64,000 nucleotides of DNA. It comes from Methylocystis sp. Its GTDB lineage: Bacteria > Pseudomonadota > Alphaproteobacteria > Rhizobiales > Beijerinckiaceae. A model generated the notes under the pieces. The model was given only the letters and a program-made list of their open reading frames with translations. It was not told the origin of the DNA and ran no database searches. Position 1 is the stretch's first letter. Each line of letters opens with the position of its first letter. The stretch is from NCBI GenBank assembly GCA_051061385.1, contig JBPFDX010000094.1, positions 7,252-71,251 of the forward strand. The letters run 5' to 3'. The position numbers and the translations under genes were made by a program. Of the stretch, positions 9,146 to 30,977 are shown one piece after another.

Positions 9146-9158
9146 GTGACTAAGTCGC
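9146..9158. promoter_or_regulatory. Palindromic motif GTGAC-TAA-GTCGC (copy 1 of 4)
   Basis: Identical to the copy upstream of sqr (22105); intergenic, upstream of ORF 9348. Confidence 0.5.
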
Positions 9159-9347: not shown

Positions 9348-9770
9348 ATGATTCTCGTGTTGATTTTCGTCGGCGTCGCCTTGGCGACAGTCGGCGTGCT
9401 TTCACTGCTCGACGTGCAGTTCAGAATAAGCAGAGTGACGGCCGTTGCGGCGTTCCTCGGCGGATTGGCGATGGTCGTCGGCGCCGAAGCGGGTTTGATC
9501 GGCTCCAGCTCGTCCTTCTACAAGGCGCAGCAGATTCAGACATCGGCCTGCGAGTTGGATGGTGAATCGGCATATCCGCAAAATCGTCGCCTGGATCCGG
9601 ATCGCCTGATTCGCAAATACATTACGGGCTGCATGGCGCAGGCGGGTTACGCCTGGACGACCGATCACGAGCACTGCAGGGAAGCGCCGCTCGCGACAAA
9701 TCCGCTATGCTATTTGCCCACGAGCCTGTTCGATCGCGCAGTGACGAAAGTTCAGGTCGCCTTCGAATAA
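9348..9770 (+). CDS. Hypothetical membrane protein: N-terminal TM hairpin plus 4-Cys exported domain
   Basis: AAGGG RBS; two hydrophobic helices, then CELD, GCMA, HCRE, LCYL. Confidence 0.75.
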   Translation: MILVLIFVGVALATVGVLSLLDVQFRISRVTAVAAFLGGLAMVVGAEAGLIGSSSSFYKAQQIQTSACELDGESAYPQNRRLDPDRLIRKYITGCMAQAGYAWTTDHEHCREAPLATNPLCYLPTSLFDRAVTKVQVAFE

Positions 9771-12750: not shown

Positions 12751-13595
12751 GCTTCCAGCCGTAGCGCGGCCTGCGCCAGCCCGTGACGCAGCGTATCGCG
12801 ACAGGCGTCTCCGGCGGCGAAGATGCGCGAGGCCTTGAAGAGGTCGAGCGCGAGATATTGATGCACCTCGGGCCGGATCAGGACGTCTGGCGGGCGCTCG
12901 GCGATCATGCGCGAGCTGATCGCGTTCATCATGATCTGGCTCGCGACGATCATCGTCTCGAAAGCGGACGGCGGCCCCTTGCCGGTCTCGACGCCGAAAT
13001 TGCCGGAGACGTCGACGGCGATGACGATGTCGGCAAGCCCCCAGAGGTGATCGTAGGGGAGCGGATTGACCAGGCCGCCATCGACGAAATAGCCGTGATC
13101 GCTCTGGGCGGCGCGCACGACGCCAGGGATCGCCATGGACCCCGCGACGGCCGGACGCAAGGGGCCTGTCGCGAAAACCGCCTCGACGCGTCGGCGAAAA
13201 TCCGTGGCGACGACCTGCAGCGGAATGCTCAATTCTTCGAAACGATCAGGCATGCCGTGGGGCCAAAAGGCCTGAAGAAAGCGTTCGCCGTCGAACAGCA
13301 GCGGATGCGCGACGCGGGAAAGAAGCCGCTTGCGTCCGCGCGCCCGCGCATGCAGCAGCCGGCGCGCGAGTCCGATGCGGTTCTTGAGGATGGCTTGCGT
13401 GTGGGCGCGCAGCTCCGCGCCGGAAAAGCCAGCCGCATAGGCGGCGCCGACGATGGCGCCGATCGAGGCGCCGGCGATGGCGACGGGCCGCACCCCCAGA
13501 TCGTCGAGTGCTTCAAGCACGCAAATATGCGCGAGTCCGCGGGCGCCGCCGCCGCCGAGCGCGAGCGCGACTGTTTTCCCGCGATAGAGGCTCAC
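12735..13595 (-). CDS. Patatin-like phospholipase
   Basis: GGGGARG, GASIG nucleophile, DGG motif; GTG start overlaps the upstream stop. Confidence 0.9.
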   Translation of the reverse strand: MSLYRGKTVALALGGGGARGLAHICVLEALDDLGVRPVAIAGASIGAIVGAAYAAGFSGAELRAHTQAILKNRIGLARRLLHARARGRKRLLSRVAHPLLFDGERFLQAFWPHGMPDRFEELSIPLQVVATDFRRRVEAVFATGPLRPAVAGSMAIPGVVRAAQSDHGYFVDGGLVNPLPYDHLWGLADIVIAVDVSGNFGVETGKGPPSAFETMIVASQIMMNAISSRMIAERPPDVLIRPEVHQYLALDLFKASRIFAAGDACRDTLRHGLAQAALRLEAHRRA

Positions 13596-14476
13596 AGGAA
13601 TTTCTCCAAGGCGGCGAGCGTCTCCGCCGGCGCCTCCTCCATTGGATAAAGTCCGGAGTCGACGCGCGCCTCGGCGATGTCGTCGCCCCATTCGCGCCAG
13701 GCGGCGACGAGGGAAGGGCCATTTGCGGGGAATGTCGCATCGCCCGCGACGATCAGCGTCGGCATCGCGAGTTTCCTGCCTTCGGCTTTGTCGGCGGCAA
13801 GCTGCTCGCGGTCGAAGGTCGCCCCGGCGCGAAAATCCTCGCAGAAAGCGTGGATACGCGCCGGATCGTTGAAGGCCTGACGATAGGCGGCGAGCGCGTC
13901 CGCGCAAAATACGTCCAGCGACTTCGCTTTCGTCGCGTTCATCAGCGCATCGTCGAGAAAGCCGACGGGATCGAGGCCGATCAGCTCTTCCGGCTTGGGC
14001 GCGTCAGCAGCGAGGAAGCGCGCGCGTCCGACGCGCTGCAGATCGCCATCGCCGAAATCATCGTCAACCGGCGCGATATTGATGAGCGCAATCTTGTCGA
14101 GCCGGCCGGGCTGGTCGAGCGCGAGGCGCTGGCCGACGCGCGCGCCCCTGTCGTGCCCGACGAGCGCGAAGCGCGCATGACCGAGCGATTCCATAACCAA
14201 CACGACGTCGGCGGCCATCTCCCGCTTCGTGTAATGCTCGCCCTTTTCGCTCGCGGGGACGGACGACCATCCGTAGCCGCGAAGATCCATTGCGACGACC
14301 GTGAACCGTTTCGCGAGCGTCGACGCGATCTTATGCCAGGCGACATGGGTTTCGCCGAACCCGTGTAACAGGATCACCGGCGAGCCCTCGCCACGGACGC
14401 GGGCGAATATTTTTCCAGCCGGCGCGTCGATCCAATGCGAAGCAAAACCCGGGAACAGATGCGCGTGATCGGACAT
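13592..14476 (-). CDS. Alpha/beta hydrolase of the fluoroacetate/haloacetate dehalogenase family with substituted catalytic residues
   Basis: LLHGF, DLRGYG, GHDRGARV retained; SGLY in place of SGHF. Confidence 0.85.
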   Translation of the reverse strand: MSDHAHLFPGFASHWIDAPAGKIFARVRGEGSPVILLHGFGETHVAWHKIASTLAKRFTVVAMDLRGYGWSSVPASEKGEHYTKREMAADVVLVMESLGHARFALVGHDRGARVGQRLALDQPGRLDKIALINIAPVDDDFGDGDLQRVGRARFLAADAPKPEELIGLDPVGFLDDALMNATKAKSLDVFCADALAAYRQAFNDPARIHAFCEDFRAGATFDREQLAADKAEGRKLAMPTLIVAGDATFPANGPSLVAAWREWGDDIAEARVDSGLYPMEEAPAETLAALEKFL

Positions 14477-14573
14477 TTTTTAAAACCATCTCCTACGGCG
14501 TGCGAGAGCGTTCGCGTGAATGTTATACAGTATCAGCTCCATCGCTCTCGAAATATATATCGCGGACCGTCAA

Positions 14574-14586
14574 GCGACTATGTCAC
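14574..14586. promoter_or_regulatory. Palindromic motif (reverse orientation) GTGAC-ATA-GTCGC (copy 2 of 4)
   Basis: Plus strand reads GCGACTATGTCAC, in the divergent promoter region between the hydrolase and the carbonic anhydrase. Confidence 0.55.
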
Positions 14587-14689
14587 GAAGATCGCGCTGT
14601 TCCTCTGCTTGAAAAGCAAGCTGAAGCGCTTCAATGTTGAGGCAGGTCAAAAAAATTTAGAAGCAACGAACGCAACAAGGGAGAGAGAG

Positions 14690-15274
14690 ATGGCTAGCCA
14701 GATCGTCAACGAAGTTGTCTCCGCAAACAACGCTTACGCCGCCGATTTCGGTAAGAAGAGCGAACTCGCGCTGCCGCCGGCGCGCGGGTTCGCAATCCTG
14801 ACCTGCATGGACGCGCGTCTTGATCCGGCAAAATACGCCGGCCTTTCGGAAGGCGACGCGCATGTGATCCGCAACGCCGGCGGTCGCGCGTCGGACGACG
14901 CGATTCGCTCGCTGGTGATTTCTCACAAGCTGCTCGGCACCAAGGAGTGGTTCGTCATTCACCACACCAATTGCGGCATGGAGCTCTTCTGCGACGAGAT
15001 CATGAGCGACCTGCTGGACGACAGCCTCGCCACGGCGAGTTTCGACGGCAAGAACTGGTCGAACCCGCAACATGGCGGCGGCTGCGCGGCCGGCCACTTC
15101 ATCAAACGGCACACGATCAAGAATCAGGAGGAGAGCGTCGCGCAGGACGTCGCGCGCATCCGTTCGCATCCGCTGGTGCCGAAGAACATCCCGATCTACG
15201 GCTACGTCTATGATGTGAAGACCGGCAAGATCAACGAGGTCTCGGAAGCGACCAAGGTCGGCAAGGCGGCGTAG
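14690..15274 (+). CDS. Beta-class carbonic anhydrase, clade D (COS/CS2-hydrolase-like)
   Basis: TCMDARL, HVIRNAGG and HHTNCG Zn ligands; start ATG 14690 after GGGAG. Confidence 0.9.
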   Translation: MASQIVNEVVSANNAYAADFGKKSELALPPARGFAILTCMDARLDPAKYAGLSEGDAHVIRNAGGRASDDAIRSLVISHKLLGTKEWFVIHHTNCGMELFCDEIMSDLLDDSLATASFDGKNWSNPQHGGGCAAGHFIKRHTIKNQEESVAQDVARIRSHPLVPKNIPIYGYVYDVKTGKINEVSEATKVGKAA

Positions 15275-15319
15275 CGCTTCGCGACGCGAATGCGCGGTTC
15301 GTGATCAGCCGCGTTCAGG

Positions 15320-15344
15320 ATCCCCGACGCGCAGCGTCGGGGAT
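15320..15344. terminator. GC-rich hairpin between convergent genes
   Basis: ATCCCCGACGC-GCA-GCGTCGGGGAT, 11-bp stem. Confidence 0.55.
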
Positions 15345-15377
15345 GAGAGAGGTCTCTAAAACGCTCGGCGTGGCTTG

Positions 15378-15719
15378 TCACTCCACCGCGCCGCCGCGGG
15401 CGCGCCAGCCGCCGGTGCCCGGCGCATAATGGCGAATGTCGTTTCGGCCGACGTTTTGCGCCTGCGCAAGCGCCTTGGCCGATCGCCCGCCCGCCTGGCA
15501 GATCAGAACCACGTCGCCCTTCGGAAGCTTCGTCGGATCGAAGCTCGAGAGCGGCATGTTCTTGGCGCCCGGCACATGGCCGGCGCCATATTCGTGCGGC
15601 TCGCGCACGTCAACGACGGCGCAGGACTTGTCCGCCACGACGCGGCAGAAATCGTCATGCTCGATAGTCGGCGCCGAGCCGCCGCCGGCGAGTTTCGACA
15701 GGAGAGAGCCCAGAGTCAT
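15378..15719 (-). CDS. Single-domain rhodanese (sulfurtransferase)
   Basis: VVDVREPHEY, GHVPGA, active-site loop CQAGGRS, GGW. Confidence 0.9.
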   Translation of the reverse strand: MTLGSLLSKLAGGGSAPTIEHDDFCRVVADKSCAVVDVREPHEYGAGHVPGAKNMPLSSFDPTKLPKGDVVLICQAGGRSAKALAQAQNVGRNDIRHYAPGTGGWRARGGAVE

Positions 15720-15735
15720 TTTCGTTCCTTTCGTC

Positions 15736-16089
15736 TCAGGCTTGCTTTTCGGCGTCGAACTGGGAGAAGGCGGCGAGCGCATGGCTCGCATACATCACCG
15801 ACGGTCCGGCGCCCATGTAGATGCTCATGGCGAGCGTCTCCATCACCTCCTCGCGCGTGGCGCCGCGCTGCGACGCGGCTTTGGCGTGAAAGGCGATGCA
15901 ATCGTCGCAGCGCACTGCGACGCTGACCGCAAGCGCGATCAGTTCCTTTGTCTTGGCGTCGAGCGCGCCTTGCGCGCCCGCCGAGATCGCCATCGCCGAA
16001 AAGGCTTTCATCACCTCGGGCGAGCCGACCCGCAATTCGCGGATGTCGGCGGAAAGCTTCTTGGCGAGGGCCGCCCAGTCTTCGGTCAT
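15736..16089 (-). CDS. Carboxymuconolactone decarboxylase/AhpD-family protein
   Basis: GALDAKTKELIALAV, RCDDCIAFH (CxxC); ATGA overlap with the RND permease stop. Confidence 0.88.
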   Translation of the reverse strand: MTEDWAALAKKLSADIRELRVGSPEVMKAFSAMAISAGAQGALDAKTKELIALAVSVAVRCDDCIAFHAKAASQRGATREEVMETLAMSIYMGAGPSVMYASHALAAFSQFDAEKQA

Positions 16090-19000
16090 GAGGCGCTCCT
16101 TGGCGTTTCGTCGTCGCGCAGAACGACATAGATCGCGGGGATGACGAGCAGGGTGAGCGCCGTCGACGAGGCGAGGCCAAAGACGAGCGAAATGGCGAGA
16201 CCCTGAAAGATCGGATCGGTGAGAATAAAGGCCGCGCCGATGATCGCCGCGGCGGCGGTGAGAAAGATGGGCTTGAAGCGCACCGCGCCCGCCTCGATCA
16301 GCGCGGCGCGCAGCGTCATGCCGCGCGCCCGTAAATGCCGGATGAAGTCGACGAGCAGGATGGAATTGCGCACGACGATTCCGGCGAGCGCGATAAAGCC
16401 GATCATCGATGTCGCGGTGAAGGCGGCGTTGAACAAGATGTGGCCGATGACGATGCCGACGAGCGTCAGCGGCACCGGCGCCAGGATGACCAGCGGCAGT
16501 TTGAACGAGCCGAACTGCGCGACGACGAGAAGGTAGATGCCGAGCAGCGCCACCATGAAGGCTGCGCCCATGTCGCGGAAGGTGACATAGGTCACTTCCC
16601 ACTCGCCGTCCCAGAGCAGCGTCGGCTGCGAATCGTCGAGCGGCTGGCCGTGATATTTGATCGTCGGCGGTCCCGAAGGTCCCCAGTCCATCTTGTCGAT
16701 CGCGTCTTCGACCGCGAGCATGCCATAGATCGGCGCTTCCAAACGGCCGGCGACCTCGGCGCTGACCATTTCGGCGAAGCGGCCATTGTGACGGAAGATC
16801 GGGTAGGAGCCGAGTTCGCGCGTCGCCTTGACGACGTCGCCGAGTTCGACATTGGCGCCCTGGCGCTCGGTGCCGCCGGCGGGCAGCGGCGTTGACAGGA
16901 TTCCTTCGCCGGGCGTCATCGCCGAGCGCGGCAGCGCCACCGTTATGTCGACAGGCTTGGCGCCGCCGCCCTTTTGCGAAAAGCCGATCTTGACGCCGCC
17001 GACCAGGGCGCCGATCGTGTCGTAGACGGCGCGCTCCTCGACGCCGTGATACTCGAGCGCCTCCTGATCGATCTCGAAGCGCAGGCGCTCGGCGCGCTGA
17101 CCGTAGCTGTCGTCGGTGTCGACGACGAAATCGACGGCGTCGAAAGCCTTGCGCACCTTCGCTGCGAGATCGCGCCGCGATTGCGCGTCCGGACCATAGA
17201 CCTCGGCGAGCAGCGTCGACAGCACGGGCGGGCCCGGCGGCACTTCGACGACCTTGATCGCAGTGTGTTCGGGCGCCGGCAGTCCCTCGAGCTTCTTGCG
17301 AATATCGAGCGCAATCGCATGGCTCGCGCGGCTGCGCTCGCCTTTCGGCTGGAGATTGATCGCCAGATCGCCCATCTCGGGCGCGTTGCGCATGTAATAG
17401 TGCCGCACGAGGCCGTTGAAGTTGAAGGGCGCGGCGGCGCCCGCATAGGACTGAATGGAGGTCAGTTCCGGAATGTCCTTGAGGCGTTCCGCCGCCGCCG
17501 TCAGCACCCGGTCCGTTTCTTCGAGCGAAGCGCCGCGCGGCAGATCGACGACGACGGCGATCTCCGACTTGTTGTCGAAGGGCAGCAGTTTCACGCGCAC
17601 GGTCTTCGTTGCGAAGAGCGTCATTGAGAGAAGCGTCGCGAGGCCGACCGCCGTAAGAAACCACTGCGAGCGCTTGCGGCCTTTCAGCAACGGCGTCGCC
17701 ACGCGCACGTAGAAATTGCCCATGGCGCCGCGTTCATGCGCATGATCGACGCCGTCGCCGCGCTCCTGCGCGAAACGCTTGCCGGCGACCTTGAGCAGGA
17801 GCCAAGGCGTAATCGTCATGGCGACGAAGAAGGAGAAGATCATCGCAAGCGAAGCGTTCGCGGGAATGGGGCTCATATAGGGCCCCATCAGACCTGAGAC
17901 GAACATCATTGGCAGCAGGGCGGCGACGATCGTGAGCGTCGCGACGATCGTCGGATTGCCGACTTCCGCCACCGCCTCGACGGCCGTGTCGATCAGGCTG
18001 CGCGAGCCGCGCATATGCCAGTGGCGCACGATGTTCTCGACGACGACGATGGCGTCGTCGACGAGAATGCCGATCGAGAAGATAAGCGCGAAAAGGCTGA
18101 CGCGATTGATCGTATAGCCCATCAGCCAGGAGGCGAAGAGCGTGAGCAGAATCGTCGTCGGGATGATGACGAAGACGACGACGCCCTCGCGCCAGCCGAC
18201 CATCACGACGATGAGCGCCACGATCGAGACGGTCGCCAGCGCGAGATGGAACAGCAGCTCATTGGCCTTCTCGGTCGCCGTCTCGCCATAGTCGCGGGTC
18301 ACCGCGATCTCGATGTCGTCAGGAACGATGCGGCCTTTGACGGCCTCGAGCCGATGCATGATCTCATCGGCGACGACGACGGCGTTAGCGCCCTTGCGCT
18401 TGGCGATCGCGATGCTGACGGCGGGGCGCTTGTCGAGGCCGCCGGCGGCGTTGCGCGTCATGGTCCAGCTGCGCCGGTCGGGCTCGGCGGCGCCGACGCG
18501 CACCTCGGCCACGTCCTTCACATAGACCGGGCGGCCGTCTCTTGTGGTCAGCAGCAGCTGGCCGACGTCGGGGACGCCCTGCAGCGTCTGGCCGGCGACG
18601 ACAGGCACGGCGCGATTGCCCTCGCGGAACGCGCCGACGAGAAAGGAACGGTTGGCGTTGGTCAGCTTGTCGATCAGCTGATTGAGCGTCACGCCATATT
18701 GCGACAGGCGTTCGGGATCGGGCTCGACGCGGATCTGATTAGGGCTGCCGCCGACGATGTAGCTTAAGCCGACGTCATTGACCTTGGTGAGGTCGTGCTG
18801 CAATTCCTCGGCGACCTGATAGAGGCCATTGTCGGTCCAGCGATCGGCGCGCTCGGGCTTCGCCGAAAGCGTCAGCACGACGATCGCGACGTCGTCTATG
18901 CCGCGGCCAACGATCAGCGGCTCGGGAATGCCCTTCGGCAGATCGCTGATGTTGGCGCGCATCTTGTCGTGGATGCGCAGGACGGCGTTGTCCTGCGACG

Positions 19001-19322
19001 TGCCGACGTAAAAGCGCGCCGTGACCACCACATTGTCGTCGCGCGTCTGCGAATAGACGTGCTCGACGCCGTTGACGCCCTTGATGATGTCCTCGAGCGG
19101 GCGCGTGATGAGTTCGATCGCGTCTTCCGCCTTATAGCCATTGGCCGACACCATGATGTCGACCATCGGCACGGAGATCTGCGGCTCCTCCTCGCGCGGC
19201 AGCGAGCGCAGCGCGATCAGTCCGACAAGAATCGAAGCGAGCAGGAGGAGCGGCGTCAGCGGCGAATTGATGAAAGCGCGCGTCAGCGTGCCGGAAATGC
19301 CCGGACGAAATTCATCGCTCAT
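16086..19322 (-). CDS. RND efflux permease (AcrB/AcrD/AcrF family)
   Basis: PREEEPQI, GILVDDAIVVVENI, RNSILLVDF, RFKPIFLT; 1078 aa. Confidence 0.93.
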   Translation of the reverse strand: MSDEFRPGISGTLTRAFINSPLTPLLLLASILVGLIALRSLPREEEPQISVPMVDIMVSANGYKAEDAIELITRPLEDIIKGVNGVEHVYSQTRDDNVVVTARFYVGTSQDNAVLRIHDKMRANISDLPKGIPEPLIVGRGIDDVAIVVLTLSAKPERADRWTDNGLYQVAEELQHDLTKVNDVGLSYIVGGSPNQIRVEPDPERLSQYGVTLNQLIDKLTNANRSFLVGAFREGNRAVPVVAGQTLQGVPDVGQLLLTTRDGRPVYVKDVAEVRVGAAEPDRRSWTMTRNAAGGLDKRPAVSIAIAKRKGANAVVVADEIMHRLEAVKGRIVPDDIEIAVTRDYGETATEKANELLFHLALATVSIVALIVVMVGWREGVVVFVIIPTTILLTLFASWLMGYTINRVSLFALIFSIGILVDDAIVVVENIVRHWHMRGSRSLIDTAVEAVAEVGNPTIVATLTIVAALLPMMFVSGLMGPYMSPIPANASLAMIFSFFVAMTITPWLLLKVAGKRFAQERGDGVDHAHERGAMGNFYVRVATPLLKGRKRSQWFLTAVGLATLLSMTLFATKTVRVKLLPFDNKSEIAVVVDLPRGASLEETDRVLTAAAERLKDIPELTSIQSYAGAAAPFNFNGLVRHYYMRNAPEMGDLAINLQPKGERSRASHAIALDIRKKLEGLPAPEHTAIKVVEVPPGPPVLSTLLAEVYGPDAQSRRDLAAKVRKAFDAVDFVVDTDDSYGQRAERLRFEIDQEALEYHGVEERAVYDTIGALVGGVKIGFSQKGGGAKPVDITVALPRSAMTPGEGILSTPLPAGGTERQGANVELGDVVKATRELGSYPIFRHNGRFAEMVSAEVAGRLEAPIYGMLAVEDAIDKMDWGPSGPPTIKYHGQPLDDSQPTLLWDGEWEVTYVTFRDMGAAFMVALLGIYLLVVAQFGSFKLPLVILAPVPLTLVGIVIGHILFNAAFTATSMIGFIALAGIVVRNSILLVDFIRHLRARGMTLRAALIEAGAVRFKPIFLTAAAAIIGAAFILTDPIFQGLAISLVFGLASSTALTLLVIPAIYVVLRDDETPRSAS

Positions 19323-20308
19323 GGCGTCGACACCACGTCGCCGTCATGGAGACCGGAAAGAATTTCGACGCCGTCGCCATGCGCTTCGCCAGGCTGAACG
19401 ACGATCTCCTCGCCGGAGGCAAGGCGGACGAAATCCACGCCGGCGCGTCGATAGACGGCGGCGCGCGGGATGATGATCGTGTCGCGCTTGCCCGTCGTGA
19501 CGTAAACGCGGGCCCGTTCGCCGACGAAATAGTCGCCGAGCCCTACGACATCGACGTCGGCGATGACGCGGCCGCCCTGAATTTCGGGATAGACGATGCG
19601 CACGCGCCCCTGCTTGCGCTCACCGCCCGCTTCTTCGTGCAGGCCGCGCGCGCCGATCTCGACCTTGTCGCCGGCGCGCATGAACCGCGCGTGGCGCTCC
19701 GGCAGTTGCAGGCGCAGAATGTATTTGTCCTCGGCGATCGTCGCGATGGTTTCGCCGGGCATCACCACGCGGCCGACGGAGACAGGAATGGTGAGGATGC
19801 GTCCTGGCCCCGGCGCGCGCACCGAGCCCTCCGCCGCCTGTTGTTCGATCACGCTGCGATCCGAGCGCAGCGCGGCGAGGTTGCGGTCGGCGACGTCGAG
19901 CGCGGTCTTCGCGTGATCGAACAGCGCCTTCGTATAGACGCCGCGGCGGAAAAGCTCCTGCGCGCGGTCGAAGTCGGACTGCGCCTTGTCGCGCTGGGCC
20001 TGCTGCGAGCGGATGCGCTGGTCGAGCGCCTGCATCTGCAAAAACAGCTTCTGGTCGACGACCGAGGCGATCTCGGCGCCGCCGGCGACGTCGTCGCCCT
20101 CTTTAATCTTGAGCGCGCTCACCGTCCCGCCGATTCGTGCCCTAGCCGTCAGTTGATGCGCAGGCTCCACGGAAGCGACGACGGCCTTGAGGTCCTCGAC
20201 CGGGGCGACCCGGATCGTGACCTCTCCGGCCTTGGCGCCCAAGGAGAAGGCGAGCGCGGCGAGGAGCGCCGTCGTCGGCGAAAAATGGAGGCGGCGCATT
20301 TGTCTCAT
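19319..20308 (-). CDS. RND periplasmic adaptor (membrane fusion protein)
   Basis: Signal peptide, ARIGG lipoyl half-motifs flanking a coiled coil, C-terminal SGLHDGD. Confidence 0.9.
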   Translation of the reverse strand: MRQMRRLHFSPTTALLAALAFSLGAKAGEVTIRVAPVEDLKAVVASVEPAHQLTARARIGGTVSALKIKEGDDVAGGAEIASVVDQKLFLQMQALDQRIRSQQAQRDKAQSDFDRAQELFRRGVYTKALFDHAKTALDVADRNLAALRSDRSVIEQQAAEGSVRAPGPGRILTIPVSVGRVVMPGETIATIAEDKYILRLQLPERHARFMRAGDKVEIGARGLHEEAGGERKQGRVRIVYPEIQGGRVIADVDVVGLGDYFVGERARVYVTTGKRDTIIIPRAAVYRRAGVDFVRLASGEEIVVQPGEAHGDGVEILSGLHDGDVVSTP

Positions 20309-20413: not shown

Positions 20414-20650
20414 TCAGCCCCAGAGATTGCACCAGCCGCGCGCGCTGACGGGCCCGCTCACCACGCCGCAGCCCGATGGCGGGTTGAACCAGGAGCAGTT
20501 GGCGCAGCTTTGCCGGCCGTTCGGCGCGCCGCGATAGTCGGCCGCCGATTTGCTCGACTTCGCTTGCGCCGTCGTCGCAGAAAGTCCAGCGGCGGCCGCG
20601 CCCAACAACAACATCAAGGAGCGGCGCGTCGGCGCGCGAAATTCCACCAT
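20414..20650 (-). CDS. High-potential iron-sulfur protein (HiPIP) with Tat signal
   Basis: TRRSLML twin-Arg motif; CANC-x8-C-x12-C with GWC; GGGAGG RBS. Confidence 0.88.
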   Translation of the reverse strand: MVEFRAPTRRSLMLLLGAAAAGLSATTAQAKSSKSAADYRGAPNGRQSCANCSWFNPPSGCGVVSGPVSARGWCNLWG

Positions 20651-20681
20651 TTCAACCTCCCTTGGCAATTCATCCGTTGCC

Positions 20682-20712: not shown

Positions 20713-20774
20713 ATACCGTGTTCGCGCCGGCATGAATGCGACATAACGCTCTTTCACGCCTGCGATACGCTCGC

Positions 20775-20803
20775 TTGACAATTATATTCAATAATCATAA
20801 TTT
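20775..20803 (+). promoter_or_regulatory. Sigma70 promoter of the sqrR operon
   Basis: TTGACA-N17-TAATTT. Confidence 0.6.
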
Positions 20804-20816
20804 AGAAAACATGAAT
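20786..20816. promoter_or_regulatory. Putative SqrR/BigR tandem operator C (autoregulatory)
   Basis: ATTC-N8-TAATTTA-N8-GAAT covering the -10 box and start codon. Confidence 0.7.
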
Positions 20817-21170
20817 GTAAAAGCGATTGAGCTCGCGCCGAAAGCTGCGGAGGCCGAGAGCTTTCTAAAGGCTCTGGCCAACCGTCATCGGCTGATGGTG
20901 CTGTGCCAGCTCCACGCGGGCGAGCTGTCGGTGACAAAGCTGCAGGAGGCGATCGGGCTGAGCCAATCGTCGCTGTCGCAGCATCTCGCGCGGCTGCGCG
21001 AGGACAAGCTCGTCAAGACCCGCCGCGAATCCCAGACGATCTACTATTCCCTGGCCGACGGTAACGTCTCACGAATCATCGGACTGCTTTACGAGATGTT
21101 TTGCGCCGAGGAGTGCGGCAAGCCGGCCAAACCGCGCGCGCGCGCAAAATCAAAGGAACTCACGTCATGA
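20811..21170 (+). CDS. sqrR: ArsR-family persulfide-sensing repressor (SqrR/BigR type)
   Basis: LKALANRHRLMVLC (helix-2 Cys), SQSSLSQHLARLR, LYEMFC (helix-5 Cys). Confidence 0.85.
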   Translation: MNVKAIELAPKAAEAESFLKALANRHRLMVLCQLHAGELSVTKLQEAIGLSQSSLSQHLARLREDKLVKTRRESQTIYYSLADGNVSRIIGLLYEMFCAEECGKPAKPRARAKSKELTS

Positions 21171-21367
21171 GCATTGATCGCATCGTTATGGCCTTCGCAG
21201 GCGCCATGATCCTTTTGAGCCTGCTCCTGGCGCAGTTGTTCAGCCCATGGTGGCTCTTGCTTACGGCTTTCGTCGGCGTCAATCTGCTGCAGGCGGCGTT
21301 TACCGGACTCTGCCCGTTAGCGATGGCGCTGAAACGGTTCGGCGCCAGATCAGGCGCCGCTTTCTAG
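21167..21367 (+). CDS. DUF2892 (YgaP-like) membrane protein
   Basis: FVGVNLLQAAFTGLCP motif; ATGA overlap with sqrR. Confidence 0.88.
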   Translation: MSIDRIVMAFAGAMILLSLLLAQLFSPWWLLLTAFVGVNLLQAAFTGLCPLAMALKRFGARSGAAF

Positions 21368-21443
21368 GATTCATCAGCGTGTGCGCACAGGGCGCAGCGC
21401 GCACTTGGCTGGGCCTTTGATCGTTAGCGACGAAGAGCAGACG

Positions 21444-22112
21444 ATGCCTTTCGATTGGGTCGACGAAACGCCGTCCTTGCGCAGCCTCGACGCCGCGACG
21501 AAGACCCTTCTGCGCGACTCCGCCGTTCGCAAGCAAATCCCGCGCGGCGCCGTGCTGTTTCGGCCGGGCGACCAATGCGCGCAGTTCCCGCTGATCGTCT
21601 CGGGCACTGTGCGCGTGCAGCGGGTGACCGAGTCGGGCAGGGAAATCGTGCTCTATCGAGTCGGCGAGAATGAAACCTGCATTCTGACCACGGCGTCGCT
21701 GCTTTCGGACGACGCCTACGCCGCTGAAGGCGTCGCCGAGACTGACGTGATCGCCTATGTCGTCCCCGCCGATCGTTTCAACGCGCTGATGAATGCTTCC
21801 GAAAGCTTTCGCGCGCTGGTGTTCAACGGCTACAGCAAGCGTCTCGCGACCTTGATGTCGCGCATCGAGGAAATCGTCTGCACGCGCATCAATGTTCGTT
21901 TGGCGGAACGCCTTCTCGCGCTGCGCGACGCCGGCGACAAGATCGCCGCCACGCAGCAGGCGCTCGCCGCGGATCTCGGCACGGCGCGCGAAGTCGTCGG
22001 CCGCACGCTGAAAGCGTTCGAGCGTTCTGGCTGGGTAAAATTGTCGCGCGGCGGCGCCGAGATCGTCAATCCCGCGGCGTTGCGTTCGCTGTGCGCCGCA
22101 CAGCGTGACTAA
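21444..22112 (+). CDS. Crp/Fnr-family transcriptional regulator
   Basis: cNMP-like domain (GREIVLYRV, GETCILT) and HTH (TQQALAADLGTAREVVGRTL). Confidence 0.92.
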   Translation: MPFDWVDETPSLRSLDAATKTLLRDSAVRKQIPRGAVLFRPGDQCAQFPLIVSGTVRVQRVTESGREIVLYRVGENETCILTTASLLSDDAYAAEGVAETDVIAYVVPADRFNALMNASESFRALVFNGYSKRLATLMSRIEEIVCTRINVRLAERLLALRDAGDKIAATQQALAADLGTAREVVGRTLKAFERSGWVKLSRGGAEIVNPAALRSLCAAQRD

Positions 22113-22117
22113 GTCGC
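22105..22117. promoter_or_regulatory. Palindromic motif GTGAC-TAA-GTCGC (copy 3 of 4)
   Basis: Centred on the Crp/Fnr stop codon, 90 nt upstream of sqr. Confidence 0.6.
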
Positions 22118-22207: not shown

Positions 22208-23491
22208 ATGGCTCACATCGTTATCATGGGCGCCGGGATCGGCGGCGTCGCCGCCGCGATCGAAGTTCGCGAGGGACTCTCGAAGCAACATCAGGTCACG
22301 GTCGTCTCTGACCTTGAGAATTTTCAGTTCACGCCGTCCAATCCGTGGCTCGCGGTGCAATGGCGCAAGCCCGAGGAGCTCAAGGTTCCGCTCGCGCCGG
22401 TGTTCAAGAAGAAGAACATCGGCTTCATTCCGGTCGGCGCGAAGCGCGTTATGCCCGAAGAGAACCGCCTCGAGCTCGCGAATGGCGAGAGCGTCGCCTA
22501 CGACTATCTCGTCATCGCCACCGGACCGAAGCTCGCGTTCGAAGAATTGCCCGGACTTGGACCTCACGGCGGGCACACGCATTCGATCTGCACGCTGCAG
22601 CATGCCGAGATCGCGTCGAAGGCCTATGAGGAGTTCTGCAAGAATCCCGGCCCGATCATCATCGGCGCGGCGCCCGGCGTCTCATGCTTTGGTCCGGCGT
22701 ATGAATACGCCATGATTCTTTCCACCGATCTGCGTCGCCGCGGCATCCGCGACAAGGTGCCGATGACCTACATCACGTCCGAGCCCTATATTGGGCATCT
22801 TGGTTTGGGCGGCGTCGGCGACACCAAGGGTATGCTCGAATCGGCGTTCCGCGACCGCGACATCAAATGGATCGTCAACGCCAAGACGACCGCGATCGAA
22901 CCCGGGCTGCTCAAATGCGCCGAGCTCGACGACCAGGGGCAGGTCAAGAAGGAGCACGAAGTGCCCTTCAAATTCGCCATGGTGATGCCCGCCTTCAAAG
23001 GCGTCGATGCGCTGATGGGCGTCGAGGGGCTGGTCAATCCTCGCGGCTTCGTCATCATCGACAAGAATCAGCGCAATCCGAAATATCCGAATGTGTTCGG
23101 CGTCGGCGTCTGCGTCGCGATCCCGCCCGTCGAGGCGACGCCGGTGCCCACCGGCACGCCGAAGACCGGCTATATGATCGAGTCCATGGTGACCGCCACG
23201 GCGCATAACATCGCCGCGCTGATCGCCGGGCGTGAAGCCAAGGAAGAAGGCACGTGGAACGCGGTTTGCTTGGCGGATTTCGGCGACAAGGGCGTCGCCT
23301 TCGTCGCCAAACCGCAGATTCCGCCGCGTAACGTCAATTGGTCAAGCGAAGGGCGTTGGGTGCATCTCGCGAAGATCGCCTATGAGAAATACTTCCTTCG
23401 CAAGGTTCGTAAGGGGCAGAGCGAGCCTGTATATGAGCGGTACATCATGAAGCTGCTCGGCATCGAACGACTGCGCCGCGCTCTGTCATAA
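22208..23491 (+). CDS. sqr: Sulfide:quinone oxidoreductase, type I (SqrA-like)
   Basis: GAGIGG FAD motif, FTPSNPW, SICT, SCFGPAYE, CVAIPP...PKTGYMIESM, AVCLADFG (three conserved Cys). Confidence 0.93.
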   Translation: MAHIVIMGAGIGGVAAAIEVREGLSKQHQVTVVSDLENFQFTPSNPWLAVQWRKPEELKVPLAPVFKKKNIGFIPVGAKRVMPEENRLELANGESVAYDYLVIATGPKLAFEELPGLGPHGGHTHSICTLQHAEIASKAYEEFCKNPGPIIIGAAPGVSCFGPAYEYAMILSTDLRRRGIRDKVPMTYITSEPYIGHLGLGGVGDTKGMLESAFRDRDIKWIVNAKTTAIEPGLLKCAELDDQGQVKKEHEVPFKFAMVMPAFKGVDALMGVEGLVNPRGFVIIDKNQRNPKYPNVFGVGVCVAIPPVEATPVPTGTPKTGYMIESMVTATAHNIAALIAGREAKEEGTWNAVCLADFGDKGVAFVAKPQIPPRNVNWSSEGRWVHLAKIAYEKYFLRKVRKGQSEPVYERYIMKLLGIERLRRALS

Positions 23492-23528
23492 CAGGGCCCC
23501 GCCGCCATGCAATGCTGGAGGAGAGTCG

Positions 23529-23687
23529 ATGCGGACTAGGCCGTTAAGGCGCGAGATCCTCCTCGCGCTGGCGTTTAAATTGCTGGCGCTCATCGCGCTC
23601 TACGTCCTGTTTTTCGGCCCCGCGCATCGTATCAAGGTGACGCCGGCGCAGATGGCGGAAGCGCTTTCCGCCGCCGCGCCGCGCTGA
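23529..23687 (+). CDS. cydP: Cytochrome bd small subunit CydP-like, 52 aa (not in ORF track)
   Basis: MRTRPLRREILLALAFKLLALIALYVLFFGP; GGAGGAG RBS; directly precedes cydA. Confidence 0.75.
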   Translation: MRTRPLRREILLALAFKLLALIALYVLFFGPAHRIKVTPAQMAEALSAAAPR

Positions 23688-23720
23688 CGCCCGTCAGCTG
23701 ACTTCTGTCAGGAGCCCAAT

Positions 23721-25295
23721 ATGTTCGAACTCGACGTCGTCACCCTCTCGCGCCTGCAATTTGCGCTGACGGCGCTGTATCACTTCCTCTTCGTGCCGCT
23801 GACGCTGGGTCTCGCGCTGCTGCTCGCGATCATGGAAAGCGTCTATGTGATGACGGGTCGAACCGTCTGGCGCGATGCGACGCAGTTCTGGGGCACGCTG
23901 TTTGGCATCAACTTCGCCATGGGCGTCGCCACCGGCGTCACGATGGAGTTCCAGTTCGGCACCAACTGGGCCTATTACTCGCATTACGTCGGCGACATCT
24001 TCGGCGCGCCGCTCGCCATCGAGGGCCTGATGGCCTTCTTCCTCGAGGCGACCTTCGTCGGCCTGTTCTTCTTTGGCTGGAAACGACTGAGCAAGGTGCA
24101 GCATCTCGCTGTCACCTGGCTCGTCGCGCTCGGCGCCAATTTCTCGGCGCTGTGGATTCTCGTCGCGAACGCCTGGATGCAGAATCCGGTCGGCGCGGCG
24201 TTCAATCCACAGACGATGCGCATGGAGCTGACGTCCTTCACCGAGGTGCTGTTCAATCCCGTGGCGCAATCGAAATTCGTGCACACGGTGAGCGCCGGCT
24301 ATGTCACGGGCGCGATGTTCGTCATGTCGATTGGCGCCTATTTCCTTTTGAACCGCCGCCACGTCGACATCGCCCGCCGCTCGCTGACGGTGGCGGCGAG
24401 CTTCGGGCTCGCCTCAGCGCTTTCGGTCGTCGTGCTCGGCGATGAGAGCGGCTATACGGCGGGCGAGAACCAGAAGATGAAGATCGCCGCGATCGAGGCC
24501 ATGTGGGAGACGGAGCCGCCGCCCGCGTCTTTCACGCTCTTTGGTTTCCCCGATCTCAAGAGCGAAACGACGAAAGACGAGATCAGAATACCGTGGATCC
24601 TGGGGCTGATCGCCACACGCTCGCTCGATAAGCCCGTCGAAGGCGTGAAGGCGCTCGTCCAACGTTCCGAGGAGCGTATCCGCAACGGCATGGCCGGCTA
24701 TCAGTGGCTCGCGAAGGAAGGCGGCCATCCGAACGCCGTCGTTCCGCCGGAACTCGAGGCGTCGATGCGCGACGTCGGCCATTCGCTGCTCGTCAAGCGC
24801 ATCCGGCCGGACATCGAGAACGCCACCGACGCGCAGATCCACGAAGCGGCGATGTCGACGATCCCCGACGTGCCGGTGTTGTTCTGGTCGTTCCGAATCA
24901 TGGTGGCGCTGGGCTTCTATTTCATCGCGCTCTTCGCCATCGCGTTTTATCTGTCGAGCCGGCGACGCTGCGGCAGGCCCTGGTTCCTGCGCATGGTCAT
25001 GTATAGCCTGCCCTTGCCCTGGGTCGCCGCCGAACTCGGTTGGATCGTCGCTGAATACGGCCGGCAGCCGTGGATCATCGACGGAACGATGCCGACATTC
25101 CTCGGCGTCTCGAACATCCCTGCATCGAATGTCGCGGCGAGCCTCGCGGCCTTCGTGCTGTTCTACAGCGCGCTCGCCATTATCGATGTCGCGCTCATCG
25201 TCAAATATGTGCGCATCGGACCGCGTTCGGAGGCTGAGCCCCAGACCACCGGCGCGCCGGTGCTCCCCGCGCCTGCGCCGGCGCAAACGCGATAG
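23721..25295 (+). CDS. cydA: Cytochrome bd ubiquinol oxidase subunit I
   Basis: ALYHFLFVP heme His, FQFGTNW, QKMKIAAIEAMW Q-loop, EYGRQPW. Confidence 0.97.
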   Translation: MFELDVVTLSRLQFALTALYHFLFVPLTLGLALLLAIMESVYVMTGRTVWRDATQFWGTLFGINFAMGVATGVTMEFQFGTNWAYYSHYVGDIFGAPLAIEGLMAFFLEATFVGLFFFGWKRLSKVQHLAVTWLVALGANFSALWILVANAWMQNPVGAAFNPQTMRMELTSFTEVLFNPVAQSKFVHTVSAGYVTGAMFVMSIGAYFLLNRRHVDIARRSLTVAASFGLASALSVVVLGDESGYTAGENQKMKIAAIEAMWETEPPPASFTLFGFPDLKSETTKDEIRIPWILGLIATRSLDKPVEGVKALVQRSEERIRNGMAGYQWLAKEGGHPNAVVPPELEASMRDVGHSLLVKRIRPDIENATDAQIHEAAMSTIPDVPVLFWSFRIMVALGFYFIALFAIAFYLSSRRRCGRPWFLRMVMYSLPLPWVAAELGWIVAEYGRQPWIIDGTMPTFLGVSNIPASNVAASLAAFVLFYSALAIIDVALIVKYVRIGPRSEAEPQTTGAPVLPAPAPAQTR

Positions 25296-25309
25296 GAAAG
25301 GCGACAGCG

Positions 25310-26449
25310 ATGTTCGACTATATGACGCTTCGCCTCATCTGGTGGGCGCTGCTGGGCGTTCTGCTCGTAGGCTTCGCCGTCCTCGACGGTTTCGACATCG
25401 GCGTCGCCATGCTGCATCCCTTCGTCGCCCGCAACGACACGCAGCGGCGCGTGACGCTCAATACGATCGGCCCCGTGTGGGAAGGCAATCAGGTCTGGTT
25501 CATCCTCGGCGGCGGCGCCGCCTTCGCGGCCTGGCCGCCGCTTTACGCGGTGTCCTTCTCCGGCTTCTACCTCGCGATGCTGCTGGTGCTGATCGGCCTC
25601 ATTTTGCGGCCGGTGGCGATCACCTTCCGCGACAAAAGACCGGAGAGCGGCTGGCGCGAGACCTGGGACTGGCTCTTCTTCGCTTCGGGCGCCGTGCCCG
25701 CGCTGATCTTCGGCGTCGCCTTCGGCAATCTTCTGCAGGGCGTTCCCTTTCATTTCGATCAGCAGCTGCGCGCCACTTATGAGGGCGGCCTCCTCGGCCT
25801 GCTCAACCCCTTCGCCTTGCTCTGCGGCCTCGTCAGCGTGACGATGCTCGCGATGCAGGGCGCCGCCTGGCTGAGCGTGAAGAGCGAGGGCGAGGTCGCC
25901 GTCCGAGCCCGGCGATATGGCGCCGTCGCGGCGATCCTGCTGGTTCTGCTCATCTCCGGCGCCGGAATTTGGACGATGCTCGGGGTGGAGGGATTCCGGA
26001 TAGACGGCGTCATCGAACATGCCGGCCCGTCCAATCCGCTCGCCAAGACGGTGACGCGAGAAACTGGCGCCTGGTTCGATAATTACCGGGCCTACCCCTG
26101 GATGATCGCGGCCCCGGCCGCCGCCTACATCGGCGCTCTGATCGCGGCGCTGGCCCTCGCGCTTTCGGCGAGAAGGATCGCGCTTCTCGCCAGCAGCCTT
26201 TCGGTTGCGGGGGTTGCGACCATGGCGGGCTTCAGCATGTTCCCGTTCCTGCTGCCGTCGTCGACTCACCCGAGCCAGAGCCTGACGGTCTGGGACGCTT
26301 CGTCGAGCAAAGCGACGCTCTCGCTGATGCTCGTCGCGGTGATCGTCTTTCTGCCGATCGTTCTTACCTACACGAGCTGGGTCTACTACGTGCTGCGCGG
26401 CGCCGTCAGCGAGGCGGCGATCCGTCGCGGCGACGACTATTATTATTGA
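25310..26449 (+). CDS. cydB: Cytochrome bd ubiquinol oxidase subunit II
   Basis: LDGFDIG, IGPVWEGNQVW, SLTVWDASSS. Confidence 0.97.
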   Translation: MFDYMTLRLIWWALLGVLLVGFAVLDGFDIGVAMLHPFVARNDTQRRVTLNTIGPVWEGNQVWFILGGGAAFAAWPPLYAVSFSGFYLAMLLVLIGLILRPVAITFRDKRPESGWRETWDWLFFASGAVPALIFGVAFGNLLQGVPFHFDQQLRATYEGGLLGLLNPFALLCGLVSVTMLAMQGAAWLSVKSEGEVAVRARRYGAVAAILLVLLISGAGIWTMLGVEGFRIDGVIEHAGPSNPLAKTVTRETGAWFDNYRAYPWMIAAPAAAYIGALIAALALALSARRIALLASSLSVAGVATMAGFSMFPFLLPSSTHPSQSLTVWDASSSKATLSLMLVAVIVFLPIVLTYTSWVYYVLRGAVSEAAIRRGDDYYY

Positions 26450-26466
26450 GCGGGAGAACACGAAGC

Positions 26467-26574
26467 ATGTGGTATTTTTCCTGGATATTGGGTCTGGGGC
26501 TCGCCTGCGCCTTCGCCATTCTCAACGCCATGTGGCTTGAGCTAGATGACGACGACGAGCGGCGGAAGAAATAG
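26467..26574 (+). CDS. cydX: Cytochrome bd small subunit CydX, 35 aa (not in ORF track)
   Basis: MWYFSWILGLGLACAFAILNAMWLE. Confidence 0.92.
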   Translation: MWYFSWILGLGLACAFAILNAMWLELDDDDERRKK

Positions 26575-26588
26575 GCGGCTCCCGGAGC

Positions 26589-26601
26589 GAGACATAGTCG
26601 C
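26589..26601. promoter_or_regulatory. Palindromic motif GAGAC-ATA-GTCGC (copy 4 of 4)
   Basis: Intergenic, 61 nt upstream of the second DUF2892 gene. Confidence 0.5.
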
Positions 26602-26662: not shown

Positions 26663-26848
26663 ATGGAAGCCAATATTGGAAGGACCGATCGCATCATCCG
26701 GATCGTCGTCGGTCTCTTGTTGCTCAGTCTCGTTTTCATCGGGCCGCAGACCTTATGGGGGCTCGTCGGCCTTATCCCGCTGACGACGGCGTTCGTGAAC
26801 TTCTGCCCCGCCTATAAGCTGCTCGGCATGGATACGCTCGGCAAATAG
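26663..26848 (+). CDS. DUF2892 (YgaP-like) membrane protein
   Basis: NIGRTDRIIRIVVG...FCPAYKLLG; GGAG RBS. Confidence 0.88.
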   Translation: MEANIGRTDRIIRIVVGLLLLSLVFIGPQTLWGLVGLIPLTTAFVNFCPAYKLLGMDTLGK

Positions 26849-28617: not shown

Positions 28618-29166
28618 ATGATCAAAAAATTCCTGTTCGCCGCGGCTTGCGGGCTGTCGCTATTCGCCGGCGCCGCCGCCTTCGCCGAGGACGATGACGA
28701 TGATCAGGGCGAGCACATGATGCACGAGCAGCATATGAAGATGTCGCCGAAGATGGGCGACACGCGCCAGGAGGTCGATGTTCCATCGCCGATGCGCACG
28801 CAAATGCTCTCTCACATGCGCGGCCACGCCGAGGCGATCGCCGAGATCCTCGCCGCGCTCGGCAAGGGCGACGGCGCGGCGGCGGCCAAAGTCGCCGACG
28901 CGCGCCTCGGCATGGCGTCTTCGGGCGCAGCGGCGTGCAAGCCGAACGCCAAGAGCGGCGAACTCGGCGATATGCCGGCGATGATGGCGCGACACATGCC
29001 CGACGAGATGCGCGCGCTCGGTCTGACGATGCACGAACAGGCGAGCAAATTCGCCCAGGAGGCGGCCAAGATCGGGCCCGGCGGCGACATGCGTCCCGCG
29101 CTTGCCGAATTGTCGCAAGTCGTGCAAGCCTGCAACGCCTGTCACGCCGCCTATCGCCTCGATTAG
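28618..29166 (+). CDS. Periplasmic class II (c'-type) cytochrome c with acidic and His/Met-rich N-terminus
   Basis: Signal peptide; C-terminal CNACH; helical body. Confidence 0.8.
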   Translation: MIKKFLFAAACGLSLFAGAAAFAEDDDDDQGEHMMHEQHMKMSPKMGDTRQEVDVPSPMRTQMLSHMRGHAEAIAEILAALGKGDGAAAAKVADARLGMASSGAAACKPNAKSGELGDMPAMMARHMPDEMRALGLTMHEQASKFAQEAAKIGPGGDMRPALAELSQVVQACNACHAAYRLD

Positions 29167-30898: not shown

Positions 30899-30977
30899 AT
30901 ATCTGACGGCGCAAGCACGAAAGGCGAAAGCACGAAGGAAGAGAAGCGCTTGAGCGCTGCACTTGAAGGAGAGATCG

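Follow-up and report, generated by a model that had tools for sequence, protein, structure and literature searches.

The DNA examined here, 64,000 nucleotides of Methylocystis sp. (assembly GCA_051061385.1, contig JBPFDX010000094.1, positions 7,252 to 71,251 of the forward strand; hereafter the window), carries an island of genes for sulfide oxidation and, next to it, a gene for a short beta-carbonic anhydrase (CA), protein P0001. As a chromosomal gene the CA is part of the Methylocystis core and lies beside, not inside, the island; its product belongs to the Cab-type or clade-D kind of beta-CA, within which it is placed, by sequence and by a predicted structure, nearer to the clade's true carbonic anhydrases than to the enzymes that hydrolyse carbonyl sulfide (COS) or carbon disulfide (CS2). 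Upstream of the CA stands a palindrome that also precedes sqr, the sulfide:quinone oxidoreductase gene of the island. The reading we favour, tentatively and with a probability of roughly 0.45, is that of a co-regulated Cab-type enzyme whose main job would be the interconversion of CO2 and bicarbonate, COS being hydrolysed in a side reaction.

The CA gene is intact and encodes a complete beta-CA zinc site (C39, D41, R43, H92, C95). Its reading frame opens at 14435 and the likely start is the ATG at 14690, directly 3' of GGGAGAGAGAG; the resulting length agrees with that of close homologues, which are mostly of 192-197 amino acids, the best of them being Methylocystis proteins of 79-96% identity. 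A preliminary description of this DNA had let the gene begin at 14574, which is the first base of the palindrome and no start codon, and had recognised a short beta-CA by its motifs CMDARL (residues 39-44) and HHTNCG (residues 91-96), a recognition that the open reading frame (ORF), the zinc-site residues and the match to the Pfam beta-CA profile Pro_CA (PF00484; 51.2 bits against a cut-off of 25.7, residues 35-181) all uphold; NCBIfam gives a weak match at family level. The zinc ligands C39, H92 and C95 are invariant in 41 aligned relatives and align with those of solved CAs, and the D41/R43 dyad is conserved in at least 90% of the same relatives. Five beta-CAs are encoded in the genome, four of them canonical (116.8-173.9 bits to Pfam), the window CA being the outlier with a far lower score. 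Codon 140 (15107-15109), which falls in the inserted segment described below, is CGG and encodes Arg; in 114 of 120 close homologues this residue is the Trp of the motif F-[IVL]-K-W-H (the remaining six do not match the pattern), and most distant long-form relatives have Trp as well. Arg140 thus reflects either variation of the strain or an error of assembly.

Compared by sequence with all solved structures, the CA scores 135.6 bits with the Glaciozyma CA (5ZTP), 125.3 with CafC (6JQC), 125.1 with the S. mutans CA (3LAS), 122.3 with Rv1284 (1YLK), 101.6 with the COS hydrolase (COSase, 3VQJ), 91.5 with the CS2 hydrolase (3TEN) and 72.8 with Cab (1G5C); CafC, Rv1284, COSase, the CS2 hydrolase and Cab are among its ten matches. 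An AlphaFold model built on 41 relatives (mean pLDDT 92.8) gives the same picture by fold, with target-normalised template-modelling (TM) scores of 0.92 for 3LAS, 0.86 for Rv1284, 0.85 for CafC and 0.83 for 5ZTP, against 0.59-0.60 for COSase and 0.55-0.60 for the CS2 hydrolase. Plant-type and bacterial type-II CAs appear in the fold search at 14-19% identity. The nearest characterised relatives, by sequence as by fold, are thus of the clade-D or Cab type and the plant-type enzymes are far off, in keeping with the clade-D assignment of the preliminary description. Its proposal of COS or CS2 as the substrate finds no such footing: the CA is not closer to COSase than to the true CAs (101.6 against 122-136 bits; TM 0.59-0.60 against 0.83-0.92), and nothing points to a preference for either sulfur compound.

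With Rv1284 (MtCA1 of Mycobacterium tuberculosis) and the S. mutans enzyme the window CA shares the fold at 37-40% identity, the Cys-His-Cys zinc site and the Asp-Arg dyad, but it is some 18-22 residues longer between the HxxC helix and the C-terminal helix, and where these enzymes have Met its residue is Leu, like the equivalent CafC Leu25. An insertion of the subfamily spans about residues 113-141, and the segment between the two helices (118 to 152) comes to about 34 residues, compared, by alignment end points, with 16 in Rv1284, 12 in 3LAS, about 42 in the CS2 hydrolase and about 50 in COSase. In the AlphaFold model the insertion is predicted with high confidence to form a short hairpin and a helix, and it is common to many relatives, down to about 42% identity. 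CafC of Aspergillus fumigatus, a clade-D enzyme with very low CO2 activity and kin of the fungal COS hydrolases, is 43% identical to the CA; its 'gatekeeper' leucines L25 and L78 correspond to L28 and L82 of the window CA in alignments with both the wild type and the double mutant, but at 164 amino acids it is without the inserted segment. The COSase of Thiobacillus thioparus THI115 is likened to the CA by family, by zinc site and by extra residues in the same segment (123 to 173, holding the loop Gly150-Pro158); it differs in its 219 amino acids and its lower bit and TM scores. The CS2 hydrolase of Acidianus A1-3 likewise shares the family and a similarly long middle segment, and its C-terminal helix-strand part aligns with the CA (28.8 bits over the last 97 residues), but identity is 27-28% and the window CA gives no hint of CS2 use. 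Between the inserted segment of the CA and those of COSase and the CS2 hydrolase no sequence similarity was detectable. A CS2 hydrolase is characterised by hydrolysis of CS2 in the absence of CA activity and by a closed single-tunnel oligomer.

How far such features tell the substrate can be judged from published work. In CafC the gatekeeper leucines lower the CO2 activity, and the COSase loop Gly150-Pro158 has been proposed to narrow the substrate tunnel (PMC12035519); yet the fungal COSases are without the loop, and the gatekeeper residues fail to explain either their low CO2 activity or the COS/CO2 preference (PMC12035519). Because the loop is absent there, and loop and gatekeepers leave specificity unexplained, no sequence feature of the CA is diagnostic. 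A COSase is defined by its kinetics, that is by high COS hydrolysis and low CO2 hydration, and Rv1284 is an active CO2 hydratase with high CA activity (PMC12035519). Cab-type enzymes can be fast and weakly inhibited by hydrogensulfide, as is CAS3, with a kcat of 7.9e5 per s and an inhibition constant in the low millimolar range (PMC7143076). Membership of clade D is no predictor of substrate (PMC12035519, PMC7143076); every COS or CS2 hydrolase characterised so far belongs to the clade-D beta-CAs (PMC8209446, PMC13098186), and of the three subclades of clade D a single one contains the known COS activity (PMC13098186). The long-loop subfamily to which the window CA belongs is widespread and uncharacterised, and over many phyla its identity stays at 62-69%: long-form relatives of 62-81% identity occur at 80 loci in species-representative genomes, among them those of Methylococcaceae, Acidobacteriota, Actinomycetota, cyanobacteria, Bacteroidota, sulfur oxidisers and one archaeon, and no characterised member of the subfamily was found.

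The regulatory side of the argument rests on a 13-bp palindrome, GYGAC-WWW-GTCRC (motif B). That the CA and sqr share an upstream palindrome, as the preliminary description had it, is confirmed: the pattern GYGACWWWGTCRC has three exact matches in the window against 0.03 expected, a number reached in none of 100 shuffles, and the copies before the CA and before sqr, read on opposite strands, agree in 11 of 13 bases. In the 3.49-Mb genome the motif with an A/T-only spacer occurs at four sites, three of them in the window and the fourth inside long ORFs; with any spacer allowed there are 83 matches, no excess over control spacings. In the relatives checked, L016, L017 and L075, motif B is kept at all three promoters. 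The preliminary description had taken absence of the motif upstream of orthologues as counter-evidence; it is present there at 34 of 50 Methylocystis loci with at most one mismatch (31 exact). Two 8-mers, TCGCGGAC and TGTCACGA, considered as shared words, were near chance level and were set aside for the 13-bp palindrome.

Motif B is most probably the operator of the CRP-like regulator encoded in the island, a binding we infer from the following. The Crp/Fnr protein has an R-E-x-x-x-R recognition helix as in CRP, a sensor domain of the type that binds cyclic nucleotide monophosphates (cNMP) and no FNR-type cysteine cluster; motif B can also be read as GYGA-N5-TCRC, i.e. as CRP-like half-sites at an unusual spacing. 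The conserved palindrome follows the regulator gene rather than BigR. Genome G128 has lost the rhodanese, the RND pump, BigR and SQR but has kept the Crp/Fnr gene, and with it motif B upstream of the CA and of DUF2892/HMA, whereas G155 has TauE-rhodanese-AhpD-RND and BigR-DUF2892-SQR beside the CA, no Crp/Fnr gene in the locus and no motif B in 20 kb. Wherever motif B stands at the CA, the genome encodes a Crp/Fnr orthologue with 77% identity or more; in the remaining genomes identity is 52-66% or the gene is missing. These genomes are kin, and are therefore not independent evidence. As side observations, a 65%-identical Crp/Fnr gene occupies the position after mutS in G059, motif B separates the CA from an inverted mutS in G176, and the 140-residue product of ORF 9348-9770, behind an exact copy of motif B, has no Pfam match.

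Co-regulation of the CA with sqr is, to judge from the arrangement of its promoter and of its relatives' loci, probable. The divergent region between the hydrolase gene and the CA spans 213 nucleotides (nt), within which motif B stands between the palindrome-like motif A and the CA start, with the conserved box TGCTTGAAAAG on the CA side. Motif A occurs nowhere else in the window and is found upstream of the CA at 35 of 50 Methylocystis loci, including some that are without motif B, the hydrolase operon and the island. The box may serve the CA promoter in the manner of a -35 element. A consensus promoter scan of 14380-15480 returned no sigma-70-like site, and no consistent promoter emerged from -35 and -10 boxes chosen by eye or from reading TGCTTGAAAAG as a sigma-54 element. 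In three genomes a Crp/Fnr gene comes next after the CA, in the same orientation (G128, locus L072 11934-13222; the second CA copy of G129, L071 9433-10792; G139, L044). In G128 the CA, a gap of about 45 nt, the Crp/Fnr gene and then cydAB succeed one another, and motif B is the sole exact or one-mismatch site upstream. In the second G129 copy and in G139 the Crp/Fnr gene after the CA is 53-54% identical; in G129 it ends beside the motif-like ATGACAAAGTCAC and is followed by a sulfur cluster unlike that of the window, with genes for ArsR, a peroxiredoxin, a PDO, two YeeE halves, an SQR-like protein, TauE, AhpD and DsrE.

Beside the CA the island encodes a complete set of SQR, rhodanese, PDO-like dioxygenase and TauE. 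The statement of the preliminary description that the CA abuts the rhodanese end of the cluster holds for the adjacency, but the two genes lie tail to tail on opposite strands, 103 nt apart, and do not share an operon. A strong hairpin forms in the gap (-50.3 kcal/mol, z -2.81); its GC-rich stem at 15322-15342 is likely a two-way transcription stop, and the convergent order together with this hairpin makes the CA a transcription unit apart from the island. RNA contigs that two studies obtained from pure cultures, each of a related organism, show that relatives transcribe the CA region; both end at 15273 and resume at 15378-15380, a break that fits separate units as a weak hint, these data being assembled contigs in which uncovered stretches carry no meaning. 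In having a local regulator over sqr, a PDO-like gene, rhodanese, TauE and DUF2892 the island resembles the SqrR/BigR-type sulfide regulons of Rhodobacter, Xylella and Acinetobacter; it differs in that the palindrome of the CA and sqr follows the CRP-like regulator and not BigR. We know of no CA gene in regulons of that type, no search having been aimed at one. The BigR-like ArsR protein of the window scores 92 bits to NF040642, below the cut-off of 155. Two small reading frames were also seen in the island, a CydX-like peptide of 35 residues (MWYFSWILG...) after cydB at 26446-26574 and a short hydrophobic ORF between sqr and cydA at 23492-23720, the latter kept in G128, which is without sqr.

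Within the genus the CA is nearly universal: it was found in 53 of 61 Methylocystis genomes and in 41 of the 42 high-quality ones, as against 9 of 120 other genomes of the wider family. Of 50 scored Methylocystis loci, 30 have a rhodanese gene no more than about 2 kb downstream of the CA. At four loci, that of G059 and three similar ones, the order is tadA, CA, one ORF and xth, with neither island nor hydrolase, so that island and hydrolase-patatin pair are to be seen as indels around a backbone gene; since these bare loci nest within a motif-bearing clade of a CA tree made by a quick method, secondary loss is suggested. Elsewhere in the family, outside Methylocystis, the CA has unrelated neighbours (CopCD/NadAB, EipB-like, acyl-CoA-dehydrogenase-like). 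In one of these genera (L019, G117; 16969-19704) the CA is divergent from two tandem Acyl-CoA_dh_2-type genes, with CMD/AhpD-family and glyoxalase-like genes about 2 kb downstream.

Beyond the genus, 416 neighbouring ORFs of 78 long-form loci were compared with a sulfur/respiration panel of the island proteins and a few additions, which gave matches at 7 loci. In a Methylococcales metagenome-assembled genome (MAG; L089, 6001-9717) the CA and the TauE gene are succeeded on one strand by the gene of an SQR-like flavoprotein, which may be split, by a small ORF and by a metallo-beta-lactamase gene of the PDO-like kind; in a Chromatiales MAG (L085, 197-3990) the CA is directly upstream of a gene of the SBP56 (methanethiol-oxidase) family and a fused SCO1/SenC-MauG gene. 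The other matches were a Cys/Met enzyme dependent on pyridoxal phosphate (PLP) at three loci, a peroxiredoxin at one and cydB at one. The CA family adjoins sulfur-oxidation genes in several different arrangements. Clustering of the 416 ORFs gave no neighbour family in more than five of the 78 loci; with so few recurrent neighbours the long-loop CA is mostly stand-alone, and the link with sulfur belongs to methanotrophs and a few others, not to the subfamily. At five Methylococcaceae loci (L097, L102, L111, L112, L118) a divergent LysR-type regulator gene lies upstream of the CA, which recalls cynR-cynT, with a TetR-type regulator beyond it in all of them except L102.

Table 1. Coordinates of the carbonic anhydrase gene, its upstream motifs and the neighbouring genes in the window.
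Feature	Position	Strand	Remarks
Motif B, GTGACTAAGTCGC	9146-9158	.	just after mutS; 190 nt 5' of an unannotated 140-aa ORF, 9348-9770
Alpha/beta hydrolase, then patatin-like gene	13592-14476 (hydrolase)	-	divergent from CA; shares the motif B region
Motif A, palindrome-like, TGTTATACAGTATCA	14521-14535	.	TGTTAT-N3-RTAWCR; upstream of CA
Motif B, GCGACTATGTCAC	14574-14586	.	divergent hydrolase/CA region; centre ~110 nt from CA ATG, ~104 nt from hydrolase ATG
Conserved box, TGCTTGAAAAG	14605-14615	+	between motif B and CA start; spacing to motif B constant across 16 aligned loci
CA (P0001)	14690-15274	+	194-aa enzyme of the Cab-type/clade-D beta-carbonic-anhydrase family
GC-rich hairpin, CCCCGACGC-GCA-GCGTCGGGG	15322-15342	.	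CA-rhodanese gap
Rhodanese	15378-15791	-	last island gene, convergent with CA
AhpD-like	15736-16089	-	
RND pump	16086-19322	-	
Membrane-fusion protein	19319-20308	-	
HiPIP	20414-20668	-	
BigR-like ArsR	20736-21170	+	
DUF2892	21101-21367	+	
Crp/Fnr regulator	21381-22112	+	CRP-like recognition helix R-E-x-x-x-R; candidate binder of motif B
Motif B, GTGACTAAGTCGC	22105-22117	.	overlaps Crp/Fnr stop codon; 91 nt 5' of sqr ATG, cydAB beyond
SQR	22208-23491	+	
cydAB	23721-26449	+	
Motif B, one mismatch, GAGACATAGTCGC	26589-26601	.	62 nt 5' of small DUF2892 gene, HMA-DsbD beyond
Small DUF2892	26663-26848	+	
HMA-DsbD	26937-28553	+	
Cytochrome c'	28618-29166	+	
xth	29258-30043	+	
TauE	30022-30837	-	
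PDO-like	30963-31865	+	

In the favoured reading the chemistry would be that of the family, in which a zinc-bound hydroxide attacks a linear triatomic molecule such as CO2 or COS. Since the CA promoter shares its palindrome with sqr-cydAB and with DUF2892-HMA, the gene is probably induced along with those for sulfide oxidation and for the sulfide-proof bd oxidase, and the enzyme would then supply the interconversion of CO2 and bicarbonate under the inducing condition of the regulon, with sulfide present. Serine-cycle methanotrophs need CO2 and bicarbonate. The logic of the island is the replacement of sulfide-sensitive functions (SQR plus cytochrome bd), and a carbonic anhydrase working in sulfide, a tolerance that is presumed here, would fit this logic equally well. 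By analogy with carbonic anhydrases generally, the CA very likely hydrolyses some COS; this release of H2S would be real but secondary, and the neighbouring SQR route could take up the product. The binder of the palindrome, the place of the CA among its targets and the substrate are, in this reading, inferred. We found no literature on this CA gene in Methylocystis, and the available portions of the SolV sulfide paper mention neither carbonic anhydrase nor COS nor CS2.

Several observations weigh against this reading. The gatekeeper-like pair L28/L82 and the long 34-residue segment, resembling those of COSase and the CS2 hydrolase, lean towards COS as the substrate, and with four canonical beta-CAs (117-174 bits) already in the genome a fifth for plain CO2 hydration needs a reason. 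Motif B tracks the hydrolase/patatin operon, being present at all 34 loci with that operon and at none of the 16 without it (one motif-less locus, L044, has just 142 nt of upstream sequence and is hardly assessable), more closely than it tracks the rhodanese (29 of 30 loci with it, 5 of 20 without); furthermore the orientation GTGAC...GTCGC, which faces sqr, DUF2892 and ORF 9348 at the other sites, here faces the hydrolase. The CA may for these reasons not be the target. In a quick tree the loci that carry motif B make up two clades, both within a single genus, and so represent few independent events.

The same observations bear on three other explanations. A dedicated COS (perhaps CS2) hydrolase, whose H2S would be oxidised and exported via SQR, rhodanese, PDO-like dioxygenase and TauE and which the palindrome would induce together with sqr, is the next most likely reading, plausible though on the whole doubtful. 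It draws on the fact that the characterised COS and CS2 hydrolases are all clade-D beta-CAs (PMC8209446, PMC13098186), on the place of the insertion in the very segment that holds the COSase loop and the extra residues of the CS2 hydrolase, on L28/L82, and on the canonical beta-CAs that already cover CO2 hydration. The whole downstream route is encoded, the palindrome is common to CA and sqr, and sulfur genes stand beside the CA not only in the window-type layout but also in G155 (CA / TauE-rhodanese-AhpD-RND / BigR-SQR), in the second G129 copy, in the Methylococcales MAG, in the Chromatiales MAG and, as Cys/Met PLP enzymes, at three further loci. Set against this, the CA is nearer to the true CAs than to the two hydrolases (122-136 against 92-102 bits; TM 0.83-0.92 against 0.55-0.60), its insertion is unlike theirs, and loop and gatekeepers do not account for specificity (PMC12035519). 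The CA runs convergently to the island, without co-transcription, it is present in genomes without the island at the locus, 71 of the 78 loci outside the genus are without panel neighbours, and a sulfide-oxidation set appears at 1 of the 78. Nor was an internal source of COS found, the sole match to the nitrile/thiocyanate-hydratase family being a truncated remnant, and ambient COS, at about 500 pptv (PMC8209446), would be tiny as an energy feed. Of the route from COS or CS2 to H2S, SQR, persulfide, PDO and sulfite export in the preliminary description, the downstream genes are present; neither COS nor CS2 stands out as the physiological substrate of the entry step, and nothing points to CS2. 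The remnant itself lies on contig C45 of G000 (L156 898-1941), where a single frame joins a nitrile-hydratase beta-like C-terminus to the first ~65 residues of an alpha subunit and breaks off beside a ParA-like gene, the NHase_alpha match being truncated.

That the CA is a housekeeping enzyme at a conserved spot where the island happened to insert, the palindrome controlling only the hydrolase-patatin operon, we regard as unlikely. Such mere adjacency would accord with the near-universal presence of the CA as a backbone gene flanking an indel, with the tracking and orientation of motif B just described, with G155, where the island adjoins the CA but motif B is missing, and with the want of any neighbour family shared by more than five of the 78 loci in other taxa. 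It accords poorly with the three genomes in which the CA stands directly before the regulator gene on one strand, with motif B as the sole exact or one-mismatch site upstream of CA-crp-cydAB in G128, and with the promoter order in the window, where the CA-specific motif A comes first, then motif B, and on the CA side, before the gene starts, the conserved box. In addition, a second and differently organised sulfur cluster is also edged by a CA copy, and in the Methylococcales MAG the CA is in line with TauE, the SQR-like gene and PDO. The one-strand CA-crp pairs of G128, G129 copy 2 and G139, together with the cNMP-binding-type sensor domain of a regulator that is without an FNR-type cysteine cluster, might further be taken to mean that the CA makes a signal: it would act on a gas, making H2S from COS or bicarbonate from CO2, and the product would turn on the regulon of the CRP-like protein. 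This is very improbable: it rests purely on gene order in 3 of 53 CA-holding genomes of one genus, CA and regulator are 6 kb apart in the window, the regulator is without a known ligand and BigR-type sensors already cover the sensing of persulfide.

What is at stake between the CO2/bicarbonate enzyme that we favour and these alternatives is whether the long-loop CAs are a new branch that handles COS or carbonic anhydrases that tolerate sulfide, and whether the CRP-like regulator is a new switch for sulfide or respiratory stress; if neither holds, the CA is an ordinary housekeeping enzyme next to an inserted island. Clade-D beta-CAs are thought to drive the uptake of atmospheric COS by soils, and sequence cannot yet separate a COS hydrolase from a carbonic anhydrase. 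In methanotrophs the long-loop CA is tied to sulfide oxidation and to a sulfide-proof oxidase by a shared putative operator and by a repeated gene order. A bolder generalisation, which we consider quite improbable, is that the long-loop clade-D enzymes form a distinct functional class, either sulfide-proof CAs or COS hydrolases, wired in methanotrophs by a CRP-like regulator into a 'respiratory-poison' regulon with SQR and cytochrome bd, and that in the CA-regulator operons they may even make the regulator's signal. If this were true, methane oxidisers would themselves be equipped both to sense COS or sulfide and to consume it, and an enzyme now annotated merely as 'carbonic anhydrase' would be a widespread soil sink for atmospheric COS.

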